Source of the DNA: Candidatus Parcubacteria bacterium | GTDB lineage: Bacteria > Patescibacteriota > Minisyncoccia > Minisyncoccales > Staskawiczbacteraceae | Assembly: GCA_019658985.1 (NCBI GenBank) | Contig: JAIFWS010000001.1 | Span: forward strand, 1 to 31,110 | Reading direction: 5' to 3' | Length of the DNA stretch: 31,110 bases | Part shown: piece by piece, positions 8,873 through 17,321 of the stretch | How the letters are laid out: every line of letters starts with the position of its first letter | Position numbering within the stretch: position 1 is the first letter of the stretch | Notes under the pieces: generated by a model | Database searches by the model: none | Told to the model about the DNA's origin: nothing | Seen by the model: only the letters and a program-made list of their open reading frames with translations | Position numbers and translations under genes: made by a program

Positions 8873-8910
8873 TTTTTTTTCTACAATATTTGTGGATAAT
8901 ATTTTGCAGC

Positions 8911-8940
8911 AATAAAAAATCCCTTCTTTACAAAGGGATT
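8911..8940 (-). terminator. Intrinsic terminator of array 1
   Basis: Minus strand AATCCCTT-TGTAAAG-AAGGGATT-TTTTATT, 15 nt beyond the last repeat. Confidence 0.75.
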
Positions 8941-8954
8941 ATTGAAGCCTTAAC

Positions 8955-10586
8955 GACGGACTACTCCGCCCCTCGGTTCAAGATGAGGCGCTATGCACCA
9001 CCATGCCGGACGTTGTAATAATGACGGAATACTCCGCCCATCGCGCAGACTAACTAAAGAGCGGGACACCTGAGCAAACTAAACCGAAGGTAGGCAGATT
9101 AATGGCGGATAACTCCGCCCATCGCATCGTGACGCGATACTAGACGATACCGTGCGGAAGCATGAGTATCCTTAAAGACGGCGCACGCCGTCGGACAGCG
9201 GGACACACCGACAGCGGAGAGAGTCGTACAAAACCTAGCTCAGCTCTGTTGTCATGGCGGCATACACCACCCACGACTAGGCAAAAGAGCGCTTTACCAG
9301 ACATTGCCACACGACACGAAAGCTCATCGACAGCGGAGTACTCCGCTCATCCACTATACTGGCACTAGGACTGGCTTCACCTCACAAGACCGTGACTTCA
9401 TAGCGGAATACTCCGCTCGCTCACTATACCGGCGCTAGAACTGACTTTACCTCGCAAGGCCATAACTACTCCGCCAGGCGCCAGGCAACAGTAGGCTCGA
9501 CATTACGTGAGCAGACCACAGGATAACCATTCCCTTGACGGTTTACACCGCCCCGGAACTAGCATTACCTCACTCCGCCTAGCTTAGCTCGACGGATGCA
9601 CAGGAGAATTCATGGCAGAGTACTCTGCCGGGCGTGAAGCGCGGGAGAAGATTGCGGCACCGTGACAGACTTAACCAAGATTTATGGCGGAGTACTCCGC
9701 CCAATACCTGACCAAGCCCGATCTTGCTAGACCTGGCCTTGCCAAATAATAGCGGCGTACGCCGCCCGTAACTTAGAGACGCGTGAGGTCGCAAAGCGAC
9801 AGTTGACTACACGGGACGATACCGCAGCCAATGCATGGCGGAATACTCCGCCCCGAACAAGAACATAGCGGATCGCAGTAAACCATGCCGATTCACAGCT
9901 TGCTCTTGCTTTCATGGCGGCGTACGCCGCCCTTCAAACTAAGTTACCATGAGCTAGGGTACCTTGCCTAATCGCGGCGGATTACTCCGCCCGGCAAAAC
10001 TAACGTGCAGTTGGCTACTCCACGTTACAAGAATACCACGACGGCATACGCCGCCAGAAAAGATACCTGGCTTGACTCCGCGCCACTAAACCTAACCTAA
10101 TCATGACGGAATACTCCGCCCGATACTGTGGCTTAACCCACTGCACCATAATGAGGTAAACCCCATTAATGGCGGAGTACTCCGCCCGACAATCACAATG
10201 TACGGTTGACTGCCATGTGTCGCCAGATAGGTAACGACGGAATACTCCGCCGCGCATGTCGGGTTACGCCACGATACGTTGGCGCACACCGCCTTGAATT
10301 GCATAACGGAATACTCCGCTCAGAAGCCGGGTAGACTCCGCCTTAGGAAGCTTAGCTCCACCCCACCAAATATAACGACGACATACGCCGCCGTGCATGC
10401 AGCACTAAGCTGGATCACACGCCATCGGACCTTGCCATTAACGGCGGATCACTCCACCCGCTAGCTAGCTCCAAGCTACTGCGCGTTGCCTAACTAAATA
10501 TCGACAGCGGATTACTCCGCTCTTCACTGAACAAACACGCAACTAAGACGTAGCCCGCAACGGGCCGCCTTAAGTTATAGCACTTG
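8955..10586 (-). CRISPR. Array 1: non-canonical CRISPR-like hairpin-repeat array with 5-nt-periodic spacers (22 full repeats plus 1 half)
   Basis: 16-nt cores (+ strand consensus G(G/A)CGGA-NTA-CTCCGCC) at 8955, 9023, 9104, 9177, 9256, 9332, 9402, (half 9468), 9537, 9614, 9686, 9751, 9837, 9916, 9976, 10040, 10105, 10171, 10236, 10305, 10377, 10443 and 10506. Spacers are distinct, with a periodic first unit to ~10586. Promoter and terminator give minus-strand orientation. Confidence 0.85.
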
Positions 10587-10598
10587 CATATTCCAAAT

Positions 10599-10627
10599 AA
10601 TATAACTTAAGGCGATTTCTTAATCAA
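10599..10627 (-). promoter_or_regulatory. Sigma70-like promoter of array 1
   Basis: Minus strand TTGATT (10627-10622), 17 nt, TATATT (10604-10599), overlapped by inverted repeats. Confidence 0.65.
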
Positions 10628-10638
10628 ATAAGAAATCT

Positions 10639-10678
10639 AATAAAAATCACGGAGCCGAAGACATTGCTGTACTTCGGC
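10639..10678 (-). terminator. Intrinsic terminator of the DinG gene
   Basis: Minus strand GCCGAAG-TACAGCAATGT-CTTCGGC then TCCGTGATTTTTATT. Confidence 0.65.
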
Positions 10679-10707
10679 GCCGCGATCATTTGTCTACCCA
10701 GGCCTGC

Positions 10708-12648
10708 TCAGTCGACGAGCAGATCCTCGGCCTCCCCGAGACACTCTTCCAGATCCCGGTCGCCGATGTAGACGCCGTGGGCCTGCAACTCCGGCGGCAG
10801 GTTGTGGAAAACGAGTTCCCGGAACCCTTCGGACATCAGCAGAGACACACCCTTGCAATCCTTGCTTCGGATGTTACGGCCGAGAGCCTGGAGAGTCTGC
10901 AGGACAACGCGCGCCCTCGTCCGAACCCAAGCCCCCTTTCCATAGCGCTGTTGTTCGAATTGCGCAACCGCACTCTCCGGATCGGGATACCCCGGGCGCA
11001 GGAGCCACAGCGCACCAGCTAGACCGTCCGGCAAATCCAAGCCCGTGCCGTAGTGCGCCATGCACCCGATCAGCACTTGGCCCTGCCCGTCCTTGAAGAG
11101 TCGCGCGGCCTCCTTAGCCGGCATGTGACCGTTATAGGTCACGACTTCCAGACCCGCTTGTTCACAGAACGCGATACACTGTTCACGTTCTTTGTTCGAC
11201 ACCAGGAGCACGAGGCTACGGATGTCTTGCTCAGCCAGGCGTGCGCAGCCATTGGCGATGGCTCGCAACGTTCTCCGTTTTTTCTTCCCTGACATGTCCT
11301 GCTTGCGCGAGAGATCGTCCACGTCGCAAGGCACCATGATGCGACGGTTGGTCGCCGGGAATGGCGACGGAGCCGAGTGCATCTGCAGGCGCAGACCCGT
11401 TTCGTAGCGGAAGTGGTCGGCGTTTTGGCCGATCGTGGCCGAGAAGCAGAGGGTGGTGGGAGGAGCCAGCCTCTTGATGATCAGGCCAGCCACGTAATGG
11501 CAGTGGAGCCTGAGCAGATACTCGACTCTTTCCCTTCCCTTCTTGATCTGGAAGAACGAACAGGTGTAGTTGAGCGGCCGACGGATGACTTCGTCGTCAT
11601 CGTTCTTCACCGGGATGCCAAACCTCATCGTATGGCCATATCGCCGGAGATCCCGCGTCAGGCGTTCCAGATCCCTGACAGCACGGAAGTCGGTTGGCAT
11701 TTTGAGATGCCCCGCCTCGATCGCTGCCCGTCTTCTCTCGCCCTCAATGATACCGGGTTCGATTTCATCGAGGATTTCTAGTAGCTTCTCAATCTGGTCA
11801 CCCTCGAGCAGATACTCCCGATCGGGTTGCCGATCCTCGCTGTGGGCAATCTCATTCATTGCTTCCAAGAAACGCCTCAGGATCGGCGCTTCCGGTGCGT
11901 GAATGCGTTCGAGAAGGGCGATCGCCTGGCTGACGTGGTAGTTACTGATCGTGTAACTCAACGTGTAGCGGATGACATCCGGCCACTGGTGAGCTTCGTC
12001 AACGATCAGCACTGGCACGCGGCCGTAGGCGGTCTGATACACGTCGCCATCCTGCTTGTTGCCAAACAGCATGATGTACGTGTAGGCGGACATGGTCATG
12101 ACGACGATGCCGCCACCTTTCTTGGCTTCGTAGGTCTGTTGGTAGTACGGACAAGGAACCGCGGACGGATCCTTGACTTGGCCGGTCTTCTGATCAACGT
12201 AGTGCGGACAGTTCTTGTGGAACATGTACGGCACTTCGTCAACGCGCGGCACATCCGGATTGGCGGCCAGCACGGGCAACTCGTGCCGCTGGACCGGGTT
12301 TTTCGGCTCTTCCTCGAAGCCCTCGTGGGCCCAAGGACAGACGTGGTCATGTTGACCGAAGACCACCCGCACATCGGGATGCTCTTCCTTGATCTGCGCG
12401 ACCACTGCCCGGGACGGCGCGATCCACACAACCGTCTCGCCCGGTTCCAGTTTGCTCAGGGCATACGAGGCGGCAGCATATTCCAGCGCCGTCTTGCCCG
12501 TCCCCGTTGGAAGCTGCTGAAGCCACTTCCCCTCCGCCAACGCCCGCATCGCATCCCGTTGAATGGGACGCGGAACAGTGATTTTGTCGGTGAGGGGGAA
12601 ATGGGACAATAGCCCCGGCGTGTCGAACTTCAATCTGTCCGTCGGCAT
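10708..12648 (-). CDS. DinG/XPD-family SF2 helicase (array-embedded)
   Basis: Q motif RPIQ, motif I PTGTGKT, motif II VDEAH, motif III FSAT, motif V GTGLDLP, motif VI QALGRNIRSKDCKG. Cys motifs CPW, CPHY and CPYY lie in the Fe-S region. SD GGAGGAG. Confidence 0.93.
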   Translation of the reverse strand: MPTDRLKFDTPGLLSHFPLTDKITVPRPIQRDAMRALAEGKWLQQLPTGTGKTALEYAAASYALSKLEPGETVVWIAPSRAVVAQIKEEHPDVRVVFGQHDHVCPWAHEGFEEEPKNPVQRHELPVLAANPDVPRVDEVPYMFHKNCPHYVDQKTGQVKDPSAVPCPYYQQTYEAKKGGGIVVMTMSAYTYIMLFGNKQDGDVYQTAYGRVPVLIVDEAHQWPDVIRYTLSYTISNYHVSQAIALLERIHAPEAPILRRFLEAMNEIAHSEDRQPDREYLLEGDQIEKLLEILDEIEPGIIEGERRRAAIEAGHLKMPTDFRAVRDLERLTRDLRRYGHTMRFGIPVKNDDDEVIRRPLNYTCSFFQIKKGRERVEYLLRLHCHYVAGLIIKRLAPPTTLCFSATIGQNADHFRYETGLRLQMHSAPSPFPATNRRIMVPCDVDDLSRKQDMSGKKKRRTLRAIANGCARLAEQDIRSLVLLVSNKEREQCIAFCEQAGLEVVTYNGHMPAKEAARLFKDGQGQVLIGCMAHYGTGLDLPDGLAGALWLLRPGYPDPESAVAQFEQQRYGKGAWVRTRARVVLQTLQALGRNIRSKDCKGVSLLMSEGFRELVFHNLPPELQAHGVYIGDRDLEECLGEAEDLLVD

Positions 12649-12766
12649 ACACTCCTCCCGCTAATAGAGTGGTTGGCTGTCTCCGTTGATTCGAGGATGT
12701 CCGTGCTAATTATCAAAGGTCTTCATCGCTGGACTCGCCCTAGGGCAGGTCTAACGAAGCGCGCTT

Positions 12767-12795
12767 AATTTAACATCAAAAATATCCTTTGTCAA
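12767..12795 (-). promoter_or_regulatory. Sigma70 promoter of the DinG gene
   Basis: Minus strand TTGACA (12795-12790), 17 nt, TAAATT (12772-12767). Confidence 0.65.
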
Positions 12796-12832
12796 TTGAT
12801 TATTATTGTTATAAAAATCCCTGTTTTATACA

Positions 12833-12860
12833 AACAAAAAGACAGCCTGTAAGAGCTGTC
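12833..12860 (-). terminator. Intrinsic terminator of array 2a
   Basis: Minus strand GACAGC-TCTTACAG-GCTGTC-TTTTTGTTT. Confidence 0.75.
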
Positions 12861-12870
12861 TAGAATCAAT

Positions 12871-13779
12871 GACGGAATACTCCGCCCTAAGTGCGGGTGC
12901 GACTTTCCAGGCCGTAGAGGAGGCCGCGGCGACTAACTCTGCCCGATAATAACGGTGTACACCGTCCACAGCGGCAAGGCGCGCTAGCGGGATTCACGAA
13001 ACTCTGCGCTGAGTAATAGCGGATTACTCCGCCCAAAAGGACGTGGCGTGATACGATAAGGGACCACACCCTGGCAAGCCCAATCGATGGCGGAATACTC
13101 CGCCCGATACACTAACTTGGCACGCCCTACTTAACCCAACCTTGGCAAAGATCCATGGCAGAATACTCTGCCGACTGCTCCAGGCCGCTTTGGCGGACCA
13201 GACGCCACGATGCTTTACCCCGGTCTCATCAGCATGACGATCTACATCGCCGCTAACCCGAGTTCTAAGCTGGTTGACGTTACTCTACCGAGCCTCAATC
13301 ATGGCGGCTACGCCGCCCGGCACCAAGGGTTGCCGTACGGCACTTAACTGCACGTAGTATTCATGGCGGAATACTCCACCGGGCAAGTAGACGTGGAAGA
13401 TATTACGACACCGTACGTCAAATCATGGCGGTCGACGCCGCCCGGTACTCGATCCTGCGTTAGCTGACATTGCTCTGGCATGAATATTGGCGAACTACTT
13501 CGCCGGATAGCGCTGAGTAGGAAATCCTGGAGTACTACACGTTACAGCACGCCACGACGTCTAACGACGGAATACTCCGCCCCTAAACCTACTAAGAAGG
13601 AGGGAGCTACGCCATACTAGGTAACGGCGACGTACATCGCCCGAGAGGTGGCTCAGCAATGCCTTAAGATGCTTTACTCAACCCCAAGAATCATGACGGA
13701 CTACTCCGTCCGCAAGTGTACTTAATCCTGGTGGACTAAACCGTAGCTAAGGGAAATGTCAAAGAACCTATCCAATGAA
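12871..13779 (-). CRISPR. Array 2a: same non-canonical hairpin/pentamer array (13 repeats)
   Basis: Cores at 12871, 12951, 13018, 13089, 13157, 13236, 13303, 13365, 13427, 13489, 13566, 13626 and 13695. The first unit (13715-13779) is also periodic. Confidence 0.85.
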
Positions 13780-13784
13780 TTCCC

Positions 13785-13813
13785 AATGTAACACAAAACC
13801 TCCTACAAATCAA
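13785..13813 (-). promoter_or_regulatory. Sigma70-like promoter of array 2a
   Basis: Minus strand TTGATT (13813-13808), 17 nt, TACATT (13790-13785). Same -35 hexamer as the array 1 promoter. Confidence 0.65.
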
Positions 13814-13820
13814 TTTCGCC

Positions 13821-13854
13821 AAAATAAAAAAGGACAGCGTTTGACGACTGTCCT
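13821..13854 (-). terminator. Intrinsic terminator of array 2b
   Basis: Minus strand AGGACAG-TCGTCAAACG-CTGTCCT-TTTTTATTTT. Confidence 0.75.
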
Positions 13855-13867
13855 ATGAACTTGTAAT

Positions 13868-14712
13868 AGCGGCTATGCCGCCCTTTGAGATAAGCTGCTT
13901 TAGTTTACCCAGCTGCATCATACCCAATAATGACGGATTACTCCGCCCGTAACGCCGAACCGTCCTACCTGACGCTACTCAAGAGAAATGACTAATGACG
14001 GATTACTCCGCCCATCGAAGAGCAGGATACGACAGCTGGCAGAACCCCACCATACGTTATCAATGACGGATTACTCCGCCCTGCACCGGGACTAATTACG
14101 CAGCACGATACGCCACGATGGCACTTGCCTAACAGCGGCGTACGCCGCCCAAGACCGGACACGAGGCTTGCTTAACTGTAGTAAGCTTTACCTAACCGCA
14201 GCAGGTCGATGACGGTCTACGCCGCCGGTAAGGTAAGTCGGTGGTGGTGCGCGAAGCTTCACTAGCGCGCAACCTGACTCAACTTTATCATAACAGCGGA
14301 CTACTCCGCCCTCTACAATGGCTTACTTACGATGAGGTGAACTACGCTTTACTAAAACTTCATGGCGGACTACTCCGCCCAAAGATGTGCGCAACAGCGA
14401 CACGCTCGGGCTCGCTGCGCCATGGTAAATTCATCGATGGCGGACTACTCCGCCCGAAAACTTGCTGAGGGCGGGTGCGCCTAACTCAACACAACACCAC
14501 CGAATCGTTGGCGAAATACTCCGCCGGACAAGCTGGTATTCCGCGATTTACTGCACGGAACGTTGCAGAGCTTGAGCACCGTAATGGCGGACTACTCCGC
14601 CCCGTACGAATAACTACTGAATGGAACTATGCCCTGGCTAAAACCATGACGGTTTACACCGCCCGGTAACCTGCAACGGAGAAGTCAACTCTACGTAACC
14701 AAGCCGAATCAT
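13868..14712 (-). CRISPR. Array 2b: same non-canonical hairpin/pentamer array (12 repeats)
   Basis: Cores at 13868, 13932, 13997, 14065, 14134, 14211, 14295, 14364, 14439, 14510, 14586 and 14648, with periodic sequence continuing to ~14712. Confidence 0.85.
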
Positions 14713-14717
14713 CAGGC

Positions 14718-14766
14718 AAAAAAAATCGCAGAACCAGCACACATTCCTGTGTGTCCGGCCCTGCGA
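14718..14766 (-). terminator. Long hairpin plus U8 (terminator or attenuator) between the CSD-protein gene and array 2b
   Basis: Minus strand TCGCAG-GGCCGG-A-CACAC-AGGAAT-GTGTG-CTGGTT-CTGCGA-TTTTTTTT, about 17 bp including G.U pairs. Confidence 0.65.
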
Positions 14767-14806
14767 CCCTAACGACGGTTGAACCCGCCTTTTGTTCGCC
14801 GAAACA

Positions 14807-15733
14807 TCACGACACCGGCTCGACCCCGAAGGCATCGAGCGTGTACTTGGGCTTGCGGCCCGGACGGTATTCGGTCTTGGGGTTGCGTTGAGCCTTGGCC
14901 AGGTTCGAGAACCTGACCCGTTGACCTTGGCCCAGGTAGCGCAGCCGGGGGCTCGGCGGCGCCTCCGTCCAGTGCACCCGCGCCCAGCCCTGAGCGGTGA
15001 CGATCTTGCCCATGTTGCGGGCATCGTGCCAGCTCTCCACCATCCCTTCGTTGCGCCGGAGCCCGTCGATACTCGGCTCAGGCGGAAAGAGGGTGTCGGG
15101 GGCGGGAATCAGCGGCAGTCCCTCGGGAGCGAGATTCACCAGAACCGTTCCCAGGTGCTTGTGTTTGCCGACGCCCGGAAAACAGAGTCTGCCCTTGTAC
15201 CCGGAACAGGCCAGCAGGTCCTGTCGGCGCTGCACCGTCAGGAAGAACTGCCTACCCTGGCTGATGACGGCCACCTCCCACACGTGCACATGGCCGGTCA
15301 GCCTTCCTGCCAGCCGCACGTACTGGCCGAGGCACAGCGTGTTAGCCGGATAGGAGGTCTTGTTGAGGAGAGGACCATCGTAGGCGAAGAGATCCAGGCC
15401 GAAGCGGGATCCGAAGACGACGCCCTCGGAGTCCTTGTCGCGACTCGACAAGAAATCGAAGCGCCGCTTCTGCTTGGCGTGGGCCTCTTCGTAGCCCTCC
15501 TCATTCAATTGGGGGATGTCATCCGGGTCACGGTTCCAGTCCTTCTGGGGCAGGAAGTTATCATCTCCCGTCCGGAAGAACGCGACCGTCCAGTCGGCGT
15601 CGTCGGCCACCTCGGCCAGGATCGTCACCGATCCGGAAGCCAAGTCTCCGACGTAGCCGTCTGCTTCGGGCGCCACGAGGTCTTTTTCGTGATAGACCTC
15701 CACAGCAACGCCCGGGATCTGGTAAACGCTCAT
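14807..15733 (-). CDS. Hypothetical protein with a C-terminal cold-shock-like (OB-fold) domain
   Basis: Residues ~229-308 (EGMVESWHDARNMGKIVTAQGWARVHW...YLGQGQRVRF) align by eye with CspA (GxVKWFNxxKGFGFI...VFVHF...LxEGQxVxF). SD AAGGA. The N-terminal 220 aa are not recognised. Confidence 0.7.
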   Translation of the reverse strand: MSVYQIPGVAVEVYHEKDLVAPEADGYVGDLASGSVTILAEVADDADWTVAFFRTGDDNFLPQKDWNRDPDDIPQLNEEGYEEAHAKQKRRFDFLSSRDKDSEGVVFGSRFGLDLFAYDGPLLNKTSYPANTLCLGQYVRLAGRLTGHVHVWEVAVISQGRQFFLTVQRRQDLLACSGYKGRLCFPGVGKHKHLGTVLVNLAPEGLPLIPAPDTLFPPEPSIDGLRRNEGMVESWHDARNMGKIVTAQGWARVHWTEAPPSPRLRYLGQGQRVRFSNLAKAQRNPKTEYRPGRKPKYTLDAFGVEPVS

Positions 15734-15825
15734 TGGCGAAACCGTCCTTTCTTTTCAAGGTGCACTTATTGCCCGCCGACATAGCGAGCTTCAGATAGAT
15801 TGCTCCTATCATATAAATTATCACT

Positions 15826-15869
15826 TGTCAATTAATTGCGTTGACAGACGGAACATAGTATGTTAGCCT
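15826..15869. promoter_or_regulatory. Back-to-back divergent promoters for the CSD-protein and Cas7-like genes
   Basis: Plus strand TTGACA (15841-15846), 17 nt, TAGCCT (15864-15869) with an extended TG. Minus strand TTGACA (15831-15826) has only a weak -10. Confidence 0.55.
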
Positions 15870-15941
15870 CAAAACCAGTTTCAGGATGAATGTCTGGCGA
15901 CGCCAGCGAATCCTGAATAGCACCTAGCACCGGGAGAACCT

Positions 15942-16877
15942 ATGTCCGAGCCTGCTGTGTTGGAACTGCCGGCGCTCGACGAGAGCGCTATCGCCACCAT
16001 GTACGAAAGCCCCATCATGACCACGCGTCGGGTGGCGGTGTTCAAGTTCTGCCTCAAGGGCCGCAAGCCCTTGCTCTGCGACCGCATGAGTGGGGGGGCG
16101 TTGGACTCCATCTTCACGGGCCAGAAGCTGGAGATCGCGCCCGACATGCGGATCGAGGAGCGGGCCTGGATGAAGGCCTATGGGCGCAGCTACGAAAAGG
16201 ACGTACCGGTCGGCCCCGCCGTCATCCCCGTCGAGAACCTCTCGGCGGCCCTGGTCGCCGCCGGCTGCGCGATCCAGTACGGCAGCGGCAAAACGGAGAA
16301 GGTCACCTTCTCCACGAAGAACACTTCGTTCTTCGGCATGATCGAGTTCCGCGACGAGCACTTCACCATCTTCGGCCCGGACGGGAAACCGGCCGAGTGG
16401 GTGGTGGACAAGCGGCGCGGCGCGGCCAACAACAACAATGGCAGCGCGGTCTGCATCGTCCGCCCCAAGTGGCCGCGATGGTGCATCGCCGGCTACCTGG
16501 ACCTAAACCTGGACTCCGGCCTCAGTCCCGACAAGGCGCTGGACCTCTTCACCGAGGCGGGCAAGAACCACGGCCTGTGCAGCGCCAGGCCGGGCAACAA
16601 AATGACGTTCGGCATGTACGACGTCACCACGTTCGAGTGGGTGGGGGGCGTGGACCCCAAAACCATCACCGTCAGCGTGGGCAGCAGCACGACGGCGGCC
16701 AAGCCCAAGCGCGCCACCAGCCGCAAAAAGAAGGTTGCCGACGAAGCGCCCGCGCCGGACGCCACTTCGGAGACGCCGGCGGACGCGACGCTCGACGGCC
16801 AAGCCGCGGCCGAGACGCTGGGGCCCGGCACGCCGTTGGGCAACGGCGAAGCGCCCGCCGCCGAAACCCCGCAGTAA
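15942..16877 (+). CDS. Cas7-like RAMP-superfamily protein (candidate guide-binding backbone subunit)
   Basis: RAMP-like motifs: FKFCLKGRKPLL (beta1), AVIPVENLSAALVAAG (cf. Csm3/Cmr4 xIPGSSLKG), VVDKRR...IVRPKWPRW (thumb region) and AGKNHGLCSARPGNKMTFGMYDV (G-rich loop, cf. GLGxxRxxGxGxF). ~70-aa low-complexity tail. SD GGAG. Confidence 0.72.
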   Translation: MSEPAVLELPALDESAIATMYESPIMTTRRVAVFKFCLKGRKPLLCDRMSGGALDSIFTGQKLEIAPDMRIEERAWMKAYGRSYEKDVPVGPAVIPVENLSAALVAAGCAIQYGSGKTEKVTFSTKNTSFFGMIEFRDEHFTIFGPDGKPAEWVVDKRRGAANNNNGSAVCIVRPKWPRWCIAGYLDLNLDSGLSPDKALDLFTEAGKNHGLCSARPGNKMTFGMYDVTTFEWVGGVDPKTITVSVGSSTTAAKPKRATSRKKKVADEAPAPDATSETPADATLDGQAAAETLGPGTPLGNGEAPAAETPQ

Positions 16878-16902
16878 CAACTGATGGGACCAACAACGCA
16901 AT

Positions 16903-16940
16903 GCCGCCAAGAGATTCTATCTCCTGGCGGCTCTTTATTT
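16903..16940 (+). terminator. Terminator after the Cas7-like gene
   Basis: GCCGCCA-AGAGAT-TCT-ATCTC-C-TGGCGGC followed by TCTTTATTT. Confidence 0.7.
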
Positions 16941-16958
16941 ATATGTATTCAGAAATTT

Positions 16959-17321
16959 CTATTTTTCTTCTTCCCTGTTTAATTTTTGCGCTGCTTCGGG
17001 CGTAGAAACCGGTTTGCTGATCAAAAATAATTTTACAATCGCCCACACTAAAAAGTAATATACGAGCAAGGCAACTAGGCAACTCCATTCAATAACGAAT
17101 CCCTGCGATGCAATCCGGGGGAAAATACCTACAAACGGCCCAACCAAGGGCTGGGTCAGATTATAAATCAGATTTACAAAAGGCGAGGCCGGATTAGCGC
17201 CCAATAATCTGAAGATAAAACGTACGACAATCAAGAATTCAACAATGCCAAGTATGTACCACGCAATTTGAACACCCCGGTACAAGGGCTTAGTGGCTGG
17301 AGAATTGTAAGATGATTCCAT
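16959..17321 (-). CDS. YggT family membrane protein
   Basis: LIVVRFIFRLLGANPASPFVNLIYNLTQPLVGPFVGIFP is the YggT signature. Confidence 0.85.
   Translation of the reverse strand: MESSYNSPATKPLYRGVQIAWYILGIVEFLIVVRFIFRLLGANPASPFVNLIYNLTQPLVGPFVGIFPRIASQGFVIEWSCLVALLVYYFLVWAIVKLFLISKPVSTPEAAQKLNREEEK

Follow-up and report, generated by a model that had tools for sequence, protein, structure and literature searches.

A predicted VIPR locus with three long arrays of period-5 guide RNAs on a chromosomal island in a small genome of Patescibacteria type

Genes and arrays of the locus

The window, i.e., the whole analyzed stretch of 31,110 nucleotides, contains a group of three protein-coding genes and three arrays of hairpin-punctuated units. 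P0001 (15942..16877, plus strand; 311 aa) is the candidate Vipr protein, assigned by Foldseek and profile comparison, while all other features considered here lie on the minus strand. P0002 (14807..15733), characterized by an AF2 model and Foldseek, is an accessory protein of 308 aa, and P0003 (10708..12648) is a 646-aa helicase of the DinG/XPD family which, based on Pfam, PADLOC, and synteny, is probably a VIPR accessory (vap) gene. VIPR (Viral Interference Programmable Repeat) systems, consisting of Vipr, vap, and vrRNA, have the locus of Escherichia phage SUSP1 as their reference (10.64898/2026.04.26.720920, 10.64898/2026.04.26.720927).

In total 48 hairpin units, the number of spacers given in an earlier note made from the sequence alone, were located and are named here by their hairpin coordinate. 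Array A (8941..10598) comprises 23 units with tracts of 8–14 N-G-Y-N-N pentamers, each followed by a 16-nt hairpin, which on the RNA strand is of the type GGCGGAGUAUUCCGCC; in the unit at 9463 just half of the hairpin is present. The array ends in an intrinsic terminator (8918..8940), formed on the minus strand by a 9-bp stem followed by a run of U; a candidate for a sigma-70-like promoter, a consensus match only (9/12 in a consensus scan), is situated upstream of the array (10599..10627). Array B (12862..13800) has 13 units and array C (13855..14790) has 12, with intrinsic terminators at 12840..12861 and 13831..13854, respectively. Included in array C is a leader region that immediately follows P0002 on the minus strand and contains eight consecutive A (U8 in the RNA) around 14708–14715. 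There is strong support for about 48 predicted vrRNAs encoded by three minus-strand transcription units, each vrRNA consisting of 8–14 pentamers of the form 5'-N-G-Y-N-N-3' and a short covarying hairpin as 3' tail.

A period of five nucleotides locked to the hairpins

The earlier note had described a strong 5-nt periodicity of the spacers, and this is borne out by the 45 inter-hairpin segments, in which identity autocorrelation reaches 0.322, 0.325, 0.316, and 0.322 at lags 5, 10, 15, and 20, compared with 0.21–0.25 (about 0.23) at other lags. Fourier analysis yields a power of 1.48 at period 5 (z = 11.9; 0.75 +/- 0.06 for 300 shuffled controls) and a similarly pronounced harmonic at 2.5 (z = 11.1), and no signal is observed at periods 3 or 6. 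The phase is locked to the hairpin, so that the minus-strand unit can be written as 5'-(N-G-Y-N-N)n-hairpin. At positions 4, 9, 14, and so on up to 39, counted along the minus strand away from the hairpin, a pyrimidine is found in 80–93% of the units and G in 0–9%, and the base 5' of each phased pyrimidine is enriched in G (31–69%), which agrees with the near-invariant pyrimidine, usually after G, that had been noticed before. Even when whole spacers are counted without correcting for slips, 414 of 513 in-phase positions are Y. At this locus, the position corresponding to the first G in the published GGY motif is degenerate (33% G), and the N positions, NN included, have a near-uniform composition. 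Individual pentamer runs that had been singled out as examples hold as well, with in-phase Y at 9/9 positions in unit 9686, 11/12 in 9256, 13/14 in 9751, 11/11 in 10305, 9/10 in 13626, and 13/15 in 13695. The occasional slips mentioned in the same place correspond to register shifts of 1–2 nt, for example in units 9332, 9402, 9976, 10171, 13236, and 13301.

A tract scanner demanding Y at 9/9 phased positions and G at ≥5/9 recovers the four published vrRNAs of SUSP1, of which one precedes the genes and three follow them. In the window, the minus strand has 24 such tracts, of which 23 lie within the arrays, and the plus strand has one, whereas shuffled sequences yield 5.8 for both strands together. 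Every tract is followed by the 3' tail, in which a stem of 6 bp encloses a loop of 4 nt. The stems occur in 22 distinct sequences and, read on the minus strand, contain 240 Watson-Crick pairs, 28 G.U pairs, and 2 mismatches. Of the 30 stem pairs in 45 hairpins that are not Watson-Crick, 28 are thus G.U in minus-strand RNA, whereas a plus-strand transcript would have an A.C mismatch at each of these. This bias and the three minus-strand intrinsic terminators identify the minus strand as the functional one.

P0001 resembles Vipr and is accompanied by a DinG-like helicase

P0001 is predicted to consist of a minimal Cas7-like RAMP core (about residues 28–235) and a disordered tail of 75 aa rich in Ala, Pro, Thr, and Lys. 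The structural model is moderately confident (mean pLDDT 56, core 65–87), and its best 50 matches in a Foldseek search of the PDB are all CRISPR RAMP effector subunits, mostly of the Cas7 group (E 1e-4), the type IV protein Csf2 being among the structural matches; fold comparison (VIA) gave Z scores of 8.2 and 8.0. At the sequence level, no match was obtained with the Cas7 models of Pfam and NCBIfam. In contrast, the P0001 family profile matches the Vipr ORF of phage SUSP1 (E 4e-10), and hhalign of the family with SUSP1 Vipr (96.6%, E 6.3e-10, 172 columns of 200 residues) aligns the motifs RP..F..W and AG..G...RP..FG.F. These comparisons strongly support the view that P0001 is a homolog of the published Vipr protein. 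In the alignment, Asp and Trp of the SUSP1 G-loop, which bind G1 and G2, correspond to Ser and Ala in P0001, whereas the Arg of the Y pocket is retained. A relaxed G and a strict Y in the tracts would fit these changes in the G-loop together with the kept Y-pocket Arg.

P0003 contains Pfam DEAD and Helicase_C_2 domains, and its best PADLOC model, which it matches over nearly its full length, is typeIV_DinG PDLC01439 (E 9.7e-37). With the NCBIfam model cas_csf4 it scores 21 bits, far under the cut-off of 400. Helicase vaps are mentioned for VIPR types III–V, and the preprint text names neither DinG nor this phylum, Patescibacteria (10.64898/2026.04.26.720920, 10.64898/2026.04.26.720927). In P0002, an N-terminal β-rich domain matching no recognized fold precedes a cold-shock/S1-like OB domain (residues 226–308); for the AF2 model (pLDDT 78.9) Foldseek finds CspA/CspB with probability 1.0 and a TM score of about 0.75, and fold comparison (VIA) gives Z 7.5 at an rmsd of 2.0.

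The best defense-model match of P0003 to a type IV-A DinG, the Cas7-like fold of P0001 with Csf2 among its matches, and the array-like architecture with repeated hairpins might suggest a divergent type IV-like CRISPR-Cas system (Cas7 and CasDinG) whose spacers were captured from invaders and owe their period to selection after capture only. Such a scenario is highly improbable, as PADLOC, Pfam, and NCBIfam searches of the ORFs detected no Cas1/Cas2, Cas5, Cas6, or Cas8-like gene, the repeats are 16-nt hairpins of varying sequence and not fixed CRISPR repeats of 28–37 nt, and P0001 matches the Vipr profile and none of the Cas7 sequence models. Furthermore, a frequency of 80–93% Y at eight or more phased positions is impossible to obtain by capturing arbitrary DNA, and no contiguous matches of the inter-hairpin segments exist in phage or plasmid collections. 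The earlier view that these spacers are not captured protospacers agrees with what the VIPR preprints demonstrate by experiment for homologous systems.

Related loci and selection on the guides

In 14/14 independent related loci examined, the same trio occurs, consisting of a Vipr gene, a DinG-like helicase, and period-5 N-G-Y-N-N tracts on one strand, the P0003 ortholog being separated from the Vipr gene by a few kb at most. Long-array loci, the only ones in which P0002 homologs were found, contain 44, 54, 31, 26, and 26 tracts versus 0.4–5.8 in shuffles. The present locus has 48 guides, and relatives have up to 54 or more. Loci L146, L162, and L164 have only 1–5 tracts, which is near the shuffle level, but these are located beside the Vipr gene. 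In L130, every unit possesses its own promoter and terminator, which argues that the units are RNAs.

Could the arrays be a feature of the DNA only, with no function as RNA, for example curvature signals, degenerate pentanucleotide microsatellites, or clusters of REP-like hairpins? A period of 5 is half a helical turn and REP elements form hairpin clusters too, but the chance that this applies is close to nil, since G.U pairing is strand-specific, units are framed by terminators and promoters, the phase is locked to a hairpin that was found nowhere else in the genome, and each of the loci pairs the tracts with an RNA-binding RAMP.

Selection was assessed with 28 orthologous unit pairs from the window and from the related locus L129. 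At the Y position there are 51 transitions (C/U) and no transversions. The NN positions changed in 49/448 cases compared with 97/448 at the other two non-Y positions, G and N1 (chi-square about 19), with substitution rates of 0.10 and 0.12 versus 0.21–0.23. The NN series of orthologous units are often identical at 15–16 of 16 positions; NN are variable between guides and conserved within orthologous guides.

Search for targets

The earlier note had proposed to search with gapped NN patterns, and its pattern NN.NN.NN already equals the published 1-nt skip rule (NNxNNx...), under which the skipped base would coincide with the wobble position of codons. Exact seeds of 8–9 NN from five vrRNAs were compared with IMG/VR, JGI metagenomes, and 185,579 species genomes. 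In these collections no natural target was revealed for any of the five, seed extensions being at chance level, and no self-targets were encountered in the 697-kb genome with skips of 0–3. The earlier note had also suggested checking whether hits fall on codon positions 1–2. The composition of NN is unlike that of codon positions 1–2 of the genome (TA 6.7% versus 3.1% expected), and four seeds display no enrichment of wobble frames. With the seed of unit 13489, however, 17/21 matches are in the two wobble-consistent frames, and 13 of these, mostly in Pfam fn3 domains, read in the sense frame as VGA[N/K]V[T][S/R]F/LT (VGANVTSFT in 12 of them). This in-frame match on a fibronectin type III (FN3) motif is suggestive.

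The lack of a target and the near-uniform composition of the N positions are what one would expect if the RNAs were scaffolds for protein filaments, or sponges, without a target code, with the N positions as free filler and a period caused by P0001 footprints only. This is unlikely, although somewhat less so than spacer capture, because NN is under stronger purifying selection than G and N1, specific units are retained between genomes whose accessory proteins are only 30–45% identical, homologous systems have experimentally been programmed through NN (10.64898/2026.04.26.720920), and one NN seed lies in frame on the conserved FN3 motif.

Proposed function of the locus

The region most likely (probability about 0.88) represents the guide-RNA part of a VIPR system that resides on an island in the chromosome, the genome being small and of Patescibacteria type. 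The locus belongs to a kind already described, i.e., RNA-guided DNA recognition by VIPR as first reported in 2026 preprints, and does not constitute a new category. It is an unusually large form of VIPR in a tiny genome of 697 kb, more than 1% of which (about 8 kb) is occupied by the system.

Vipr is a minimal RAMP protein, each protomer of which binds one GGY/NN pentamer, sequestering GGY and exposing NN (10.64898/2026.04.26.720927). Its Y pocket excludes purines (10.64898/2026.04.26.720920, 10.64898/2026.04.26.720927), and target specificity results from NN alone, every third target base being skipped (10.64898/2026.04.26.720920). By homology to the published structures, P0001 would polymerize along the tract with one protomer per pentamer, holding G and Y in its pockets, and exclusion of purines from the Y pocket would lead to the near-invariant pyrimidine every 5 nt. 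The idea of the earlier note that each pentamer is the footprint of one protein subunit thus gains support from the one-protomer-per-repeat structure (10.64898/2026.04.26.720927) and from the Vipr homolog encoded alongside. The displayed NN would pair with DNA, one target base being skipped between dinucleotides, and a vrRNA of 10–13 pentamers would therefore read a site of 30–39 bp through 20–26 bases. That NN form a discontinuous target code, as had also been proposed, is in line with NN-only specificity in homologous systems (10.64898/2026.04.26.720920) and with NN being the most conserved. The DinG-like helicase may convert binding into interference by acting on the target once it is bound, in the manner of CasDinG in type IV-A CRISPR-Cas. 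P0002 may assist in the production or loading of vrRNAs encoded by the long arrays, and new guides may arise by duplication and divergence of units and not by spacer capture.

The period-5 code constitutes a different mode of reading DNA by RNA, which was resolved only in 2026 and in phage systems with few guides (bioRxiv 10.64898/2026.04.26.720920, 10.64898/2026.04.26.720927), and the locus and its relatives present VIPR logic at a much larger scale in ultra-small bacteria. Several hundred guides across these loci are a natural data set for the targeting rule of the degenerate NGY variant, for helicase accessory genes acting on the unusual triplex R-loop, and for the proposal that CRISPR RAMPs descended from Vipr; the constant partner, a DinG-type helicase, is also the one employed by type IV-A CRISPR-Cas. 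We tentatively speculate, at less than even odds, that the Patescibacteria loci might represent a distinct, host-domesticated VIPR type, in which a cold-shock-domain protein assists the maturation of very long hairpin-punctuated arrays (from 48 to more than 70 guides) and noncontiguous DNA binding is turned into interference by a CasDinG-like helicase. Such loci might link phage VIPR with type IV CRISPR-Cas (Cas7 and DinG) as a living intermediate and provide a large germline-encoded guide repertoire to CRISPR-poor organisms.

Comparison with known systems

With the VIPR system of SUSP1 the locus shares a single-RRM minimal RAMP homologous to Vipr, guides of similar length (about 9–16 pentamers, 8–14 here), in whose repeats a pyrimidine and a G are conserved while two bases vary and which end in a structured 3' tail, an accessory gene next to that of Vipr, the absence of adaptation genes, and the absence of self-targets, as the preprint reports for other VIPRs. 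In contrast to the phage locus of SUSP1 with its four vrRNAs, it resides on a chromosomal island of a Patescibacteria-type genome and has 48 vrRNAs in three long hairpin-punctuated arrays. The motif is N-G-Y instead of G-G-Y (YNNNG is listed as an alternative in the preprint), the tail is a plain 6-bp hairpin whereas that of the SUSP1 clade is pseudoknotted, the accessory genes encode a DinG-like helicase and a protein with a cold-shock domain, and Vipr carries the disordered C-terminal tail of 75 aa.

Type IV-A CRISPR-Cas (Csf1–Csf5 and CasDinG) similarly combines a backbone of Cas7 fold on a guide RNA with a 5'-3' helicase of the DinG family and lacks a nuclease, the probable outcome being interference by binding and unwinding and not by cutting. 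However, P0001 is the only RAMP-like protein of the locus, in which no counterparts of the Cas8-like Csf1, the Cas5 protein Csf3, or the Cas6 protein Csf5 were detected, each subunit would cover 5 nt and not 6 nt, and the guide would be read discontinuously. Whereas type IV-A spacers are captured, the guides are germline-encoded and periodic, and the array consists of short variable hairpins with period-5 spacers, without near-identical repeats. Class 1 Cas7 filaments (Csm3, Cmr4, and type VII Cas7) resemble the predicted assembly in their RRM core, thumb hairpin, and glycine-rich loop, and in having one subunit per fixed number of guide nucleotides with periodic base flipping. Cas7 advances in steps of 6 nt, flips one base, and imposes no constraint on the guide sequence, whereas at this locus the step is 5 nt, the protein would hold three bases, and G-Y is required at each step.

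Minus-Strand Hairpin Units With a Five-Nucleotide Rhythm

The 697-kb genome of this Candidatus Parcubacteria bacterium is distributed over 62 contigs and is 97.5% complete, the window being one whole 31-kb contig. Across about 8.9-17.0 kb of the window the G+C content is 52-64%, compared with 40-50% in nearly all flanking DNA, and this stretch harbors 48 copies of a 16-nt hairpin in three blocks (arrays A, B, and C) with a spacing of 60-86 nt. On the plus strand the hairpin has the form GGCGGA-nTAC-TCCGCC, of which many compensated variants exist, and each block ends in an intrinsic terminator on the minus strand, at 8918-8940, 12840-12861, and 13831-13854. The hairpin does not occur elsewhere in the 697-kb genome, its use as a DNA pattern against genome contigs gave single chance matches only, and no Rfam family is present in the window. 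Among the 270 stem pairs of 45 hairpins, 240 are Watson-Crick pairs and 30 are not. Since 28 of these 30 are G·U pairs on the minus strand only and A·C mismatches on the plus strand, the pairing pattern indicates that the minus-strand RNA is the functional molecule of the hairpin units.

The earlier note had described a strong 5-nt periodicity of the spacers, and its purine/pyrimidine counts for single spacers hold on recount. For the inter-hairpin segments as a whole, identity autocorrelation reaches 0.32 at lags 5, 10, 15, and 20 and 0.21-0.25 at other lags, and the period-5 Fourier power lies 11.9 standard deviations over shuffles, with no signal at periods 3 and 6; the periodicity is therefore well established. 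Its phase is locked to the hairpin. When the RNA strand is followed backwards from there, a pyrimidine occupies each fifth position in 80-93% of units and G hardly ever does, and the base 5' of it is mostly G. In RNA sense, a unit thus reads 5'-(N1-G-Y-N-N)n-G-hairpin with n = 8-14 pentamers, and a few units show register slips of 1-2 nt. Because their folding energy is only marginally under that of shuffles (mean z -0.27), the tracts are not strongly structured.

Some units deviate from this scheme. At 9463-9478, the hairpin is reduced to its 3' half (plus strand ..ACTACTCCGCC), probably through decay or deletion of the repeat. Within 9332-9475, two adjacent units (family D14), whose register is shifted with respect to the hairpin, are 80% identical over 66 nt; they resemble the product of a recent tandem duplication and hint at the origin of new guides. 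At 14700-14790, between the end of the gene for the accessory protein P0002 and the first unit of array C, a plus-strand A8 run (U8 in the RNA) lies beside a GC-rich inverted repeat, and the two could constitute an attenuator between the P0002 gene and the array.

P0001 Is a Homolog of Vipr

P0001, encoded at 15942-16877 on the plus strand, has no match in Pfam, NCBIfam, or PADLOC. Its AlphaFold model has a mean pLDDT of 56 including a disordered tail, with core blocks at 65-87, and points to a Cas7-group RAMP fold. All of its Foldseek matches are CRISPR RAMP effector subunits, mostly of the Cas7 group (E about 1e-4, probability 1.0), including Csm3, Cmr4, type VII Cas7, Cas7-11, and Csf2, and VIA-align gives Z values of 8.2 and 8.0. 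With a cutoff of E <= 1e-3, a HMMER profile of the P0001 family recovers 5,175 cluster representatives; the family also matches phrog_4652, a group of unknown function, and in phage phiSUSP1 (KT454805.2) the profile matches a single ORF (E 4e-10). When the P0001 family was compared by hhalign with the Vipr protein of SUSP1, 172 of 200 residues were aligned with 96.6% probability (E 6.3e-10). A disordered C-terminal extension of about 75 residues rich in Ala, Pro, Thr, and Lys (16650-16877, plus strand) is shared by P0001 and its 84%-identical relative and is missing from family members of about 200 residues.

VIPR systems consist of Vipr, a RAMP protein of about 20 kDa, an accessory gene vap, and guide RNAs (vrRNAs) of about 100 nt in which 9-16 YNNGG repeats are followed by a structured 3' tail (10.64898/2026.04.26.720920). 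The double-stranded DNA target is set by the NN dinucleotides alone, one base, which usually is the wobble position of a codon, being skipped between dinucleotides (10.64898/2026.04.26.720920). In cryo-EM structures, one Vipr protomer occupies each repeat, both G bases and Y are held by the protein with purines sterically excluded from the Y pocket, and NN is exposed for pairing (10.64898/2026.04.26.720927). With our pentamer scanner, exactly one vrRNA was detected upstream of the vipr gene in SUSP1 and three downstream of it, as published. The explanation of the rhythm offered in the earlier note, namely that each pentamer is the footprint of one protein subunit and that the NN pairs carry a discontinuous target code, is correct in outline and matches the published VIPR mechanism. 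Binding by a TRAP-like ring and periodic binding of the Rho or Hfq type had also been considered and were set aside in view of the RAMP protein and the VIPR papers.

Selection on the Pentamer

The locus L129, on a contig from another metagenome, encodes a P0001 homolog with 84% identity, has the same gene order, and contains 67 hairpin units. In both loci, the island (8900-17000 in the window) is inserted at the same site, between genes for a TrmB-type regulator and a YGGT-family protein. For 28 window units with clear orthologs in L129, substitutions were tallied by pentamer position over 40 nt each, i.e., 224 sites per position. Y was substituted at 51 of 224 sites, the first and second N after Y at 23 and 26, N1 at 50, and G at 47. 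All 51 changes at Y are transitions and none is a transversion, whereas the four other positions together show 90 transitions and 56 transversions; Y is thus free for C/U exchange, but a purine is never allowed. This 51:0 pattern is explained by the published Vipr pocket, which admits a pyrimidine only. The NN bases are best conserved, with 49 of 448 changed versus 97 of 448 at N1 and G (chi-square about 19), as is explained by NN carrying the published target code. In orthologous units, the NN series often agrees in 15-16 of 16 bases, and some units are still recognizable between loci whose accessory proteins are only 30-45% identical. Because P0001 is homologous to SUSP1 Vipr and because the published pocket and NN code explain the substitution patterns, the system in the window belongs to the VIPR systems described recently and does not constitute a new category.

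Related Loci and Partner Proteins

We reached 14 independent loci with a known or presumed P0001 homolog by looking up proteins, from named MAG contigs, and in a sample of 401 genomes of the phylum, L137 and L138 being counted as one since they share an identical P0002 homolog and the same context. In L137 and L139, which were reached through the P0002 homolog, the Vipr gene is presumed; in L137 it would be a divergent 299-residue ORF beside the P0002 homolog. In all 14 loci, a gene for a DinG-like helicase lies a few kb away at most, and tracts of at least nine phased G-Y pentamers on one strand adjoin the Vipr and helicase genes. Tract counts are 44 in L129, 54 in L137, 31 in L159, 26 each in L139 and L160, and 1-15 in the other loci, compared with 0.4-5.8 in shuffles; counts are at shuffle level in L146 (5 vs 4.2), L162 (2), and L164 (1), and in L162 and L164 a tract immediately follows the Vipr gene. 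In L130, from a Paceibacterota MAG, the units are small individual genes, each with a promoter and a terminator hairpin of its own, which argues that the units are RNAs. Two Vipr-like genes each are present at L134:1596-3369 and L159:7995-12400, the second copy in L134 (190 residues) showing 86% DNA identity to the first over its 3' end. More distant members of the Vipr family, with about 25% identity, are gp42 of Gordonia phage Pipp and gp45 of Mycobacterium phage Brocalys, both temperate actinophages, in which they are situated in the early or immunity region and have no DinG neighbor. As the system was present in only 9 of the 401 sampled genomes of the phylum (0 of 5 of the same order), these data suggest that the VIPR island was acquired by horizontal transfer.

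The helicase of the window, P0003 (10708-12648, minus strand), is of the DinG/XPD type and a probable vap product. Its best defense-system model is type IV-A DinG (PADLOC, E 9.7e-37), and by analogy with CasDinG of type IV-A CRISPR-Cas, which it resembles, it may act after target binding. P0002 (14807-15733, minus strand; model pLDDT 79) combines an N-terminal beta-rich domain (residues 1-225), for which no fold was recognized, with a cold-shock/S1-type OB domain in its last 80 residues. Homologs of P0002 occur only at loci with long arrays of 26-54 units (L129, L137-L139, L159, and L160) and are absent where single vrRNAs possess their own promoter and terminator. Since its presence correlates with long arrays without individual promoters, we would guess that P0002 helps in vrRNA maturation or loading.

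Search for Targets

The searches described here identified no natural target. Within the 697-kb genome, neither contiguous or masked pentamer matching nor NN-only matching with a skip of 0-3 gave anything above controls, which were pentamer-shuffled for the former. Among 50,697 phage and 72,556 plasmid records, nothing with contiguous similarity to the arrays was found either, a lone match at E = 0.5 lying inside the helicase gene, in agreement with the earlier view that the spacers are not captured protospacers. Four gapped patterns retaining all non-Y bases had 0 matches in IMG/VR. Exact seeds of 8-9 NN with a 1-nt skip were derived from the units named by hairpin coordinate 9751, 14364, 9023, and 13489. 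In IMG/VR, two 9-NN seeds had 0 matches and two 8-NN seeds had 72 and 32, extension being at chance; one 9-NN seed had 26 matches in JGI metagenomes (best 23/26, chance level); and two 9-NN seeds had 21 and 10 matches in 185,579 species genomes, none of them full-length. Even when three mismatches were allowed, the full 12-NN pattern of one unit had no match in the 401 genomes of the phylum.

One lead comes from unit 13489 (13505-13565, minus strand), whose NN series, if one base is skipped between dinucleotides, corresponds to nine codons of the motif VGANVTSFT. Its 9-NN seed accounts for the 21 matches in species genomes. Thirteen of them are in the sense reading frame and 12 of these encode VGANVTSFT; most belong to a fibronectin type III repeat (Pfam fn3, E 1e-7 to 1e-11) that recurs in several bacterial phyla. 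Because a random nine-codon pattern would seldom be expected to fall on a motif that is both widespread and conserved, the matches suggest that this guide may read an FN3-domain gene in codon register. The three NN flanking the seed have no match to fn3 genes, and the other four seeds show no fn3-like or wobble-frame pattern. As to whether hits fall on codon positions 1-2, a check proposed in the earlier note, 17 of the 21 mutually related matches of this one seed lie in the two frames in which the skipped base is a wobble base (one third expected). The overall NN composition fits codon positions 1-2 of this genome no better than a uniform distribution.

Comparison With Described VIPR Systems

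Seven types of VIPR have been described, some with nuclease or helicase accessory genes and some with alternative repeats such as YNNNG (10.64898/2026.04.26.720920). In the main text of that preprint, no mention is made of DinG, of cold-shock domains, or of Patescibacteria. In contrast to the GGY of published VIPR, the motif is here a degenerate N-G-Y, the first G being G in only 33% and the second in about 50-60%. In the hhalign alignment, the G-loop residues of SUSP1 Vipr reported for G1 binding (Asp) and for stacking on G2 (Trp) correspond to Ser and Ala in P0001, and the Y-pocket Arg is retained, which would fit the N-G-Y pattern of the RNA. Furthermore, the 3' tail is a bare 6-bp hairpin, and the guides are packed in three long arrays without individual promoters. 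With its large arrays, its DinG-like and cold-shock-domain partners, and its Patescibacteria host, the system represents a VIPR variant worth following up.
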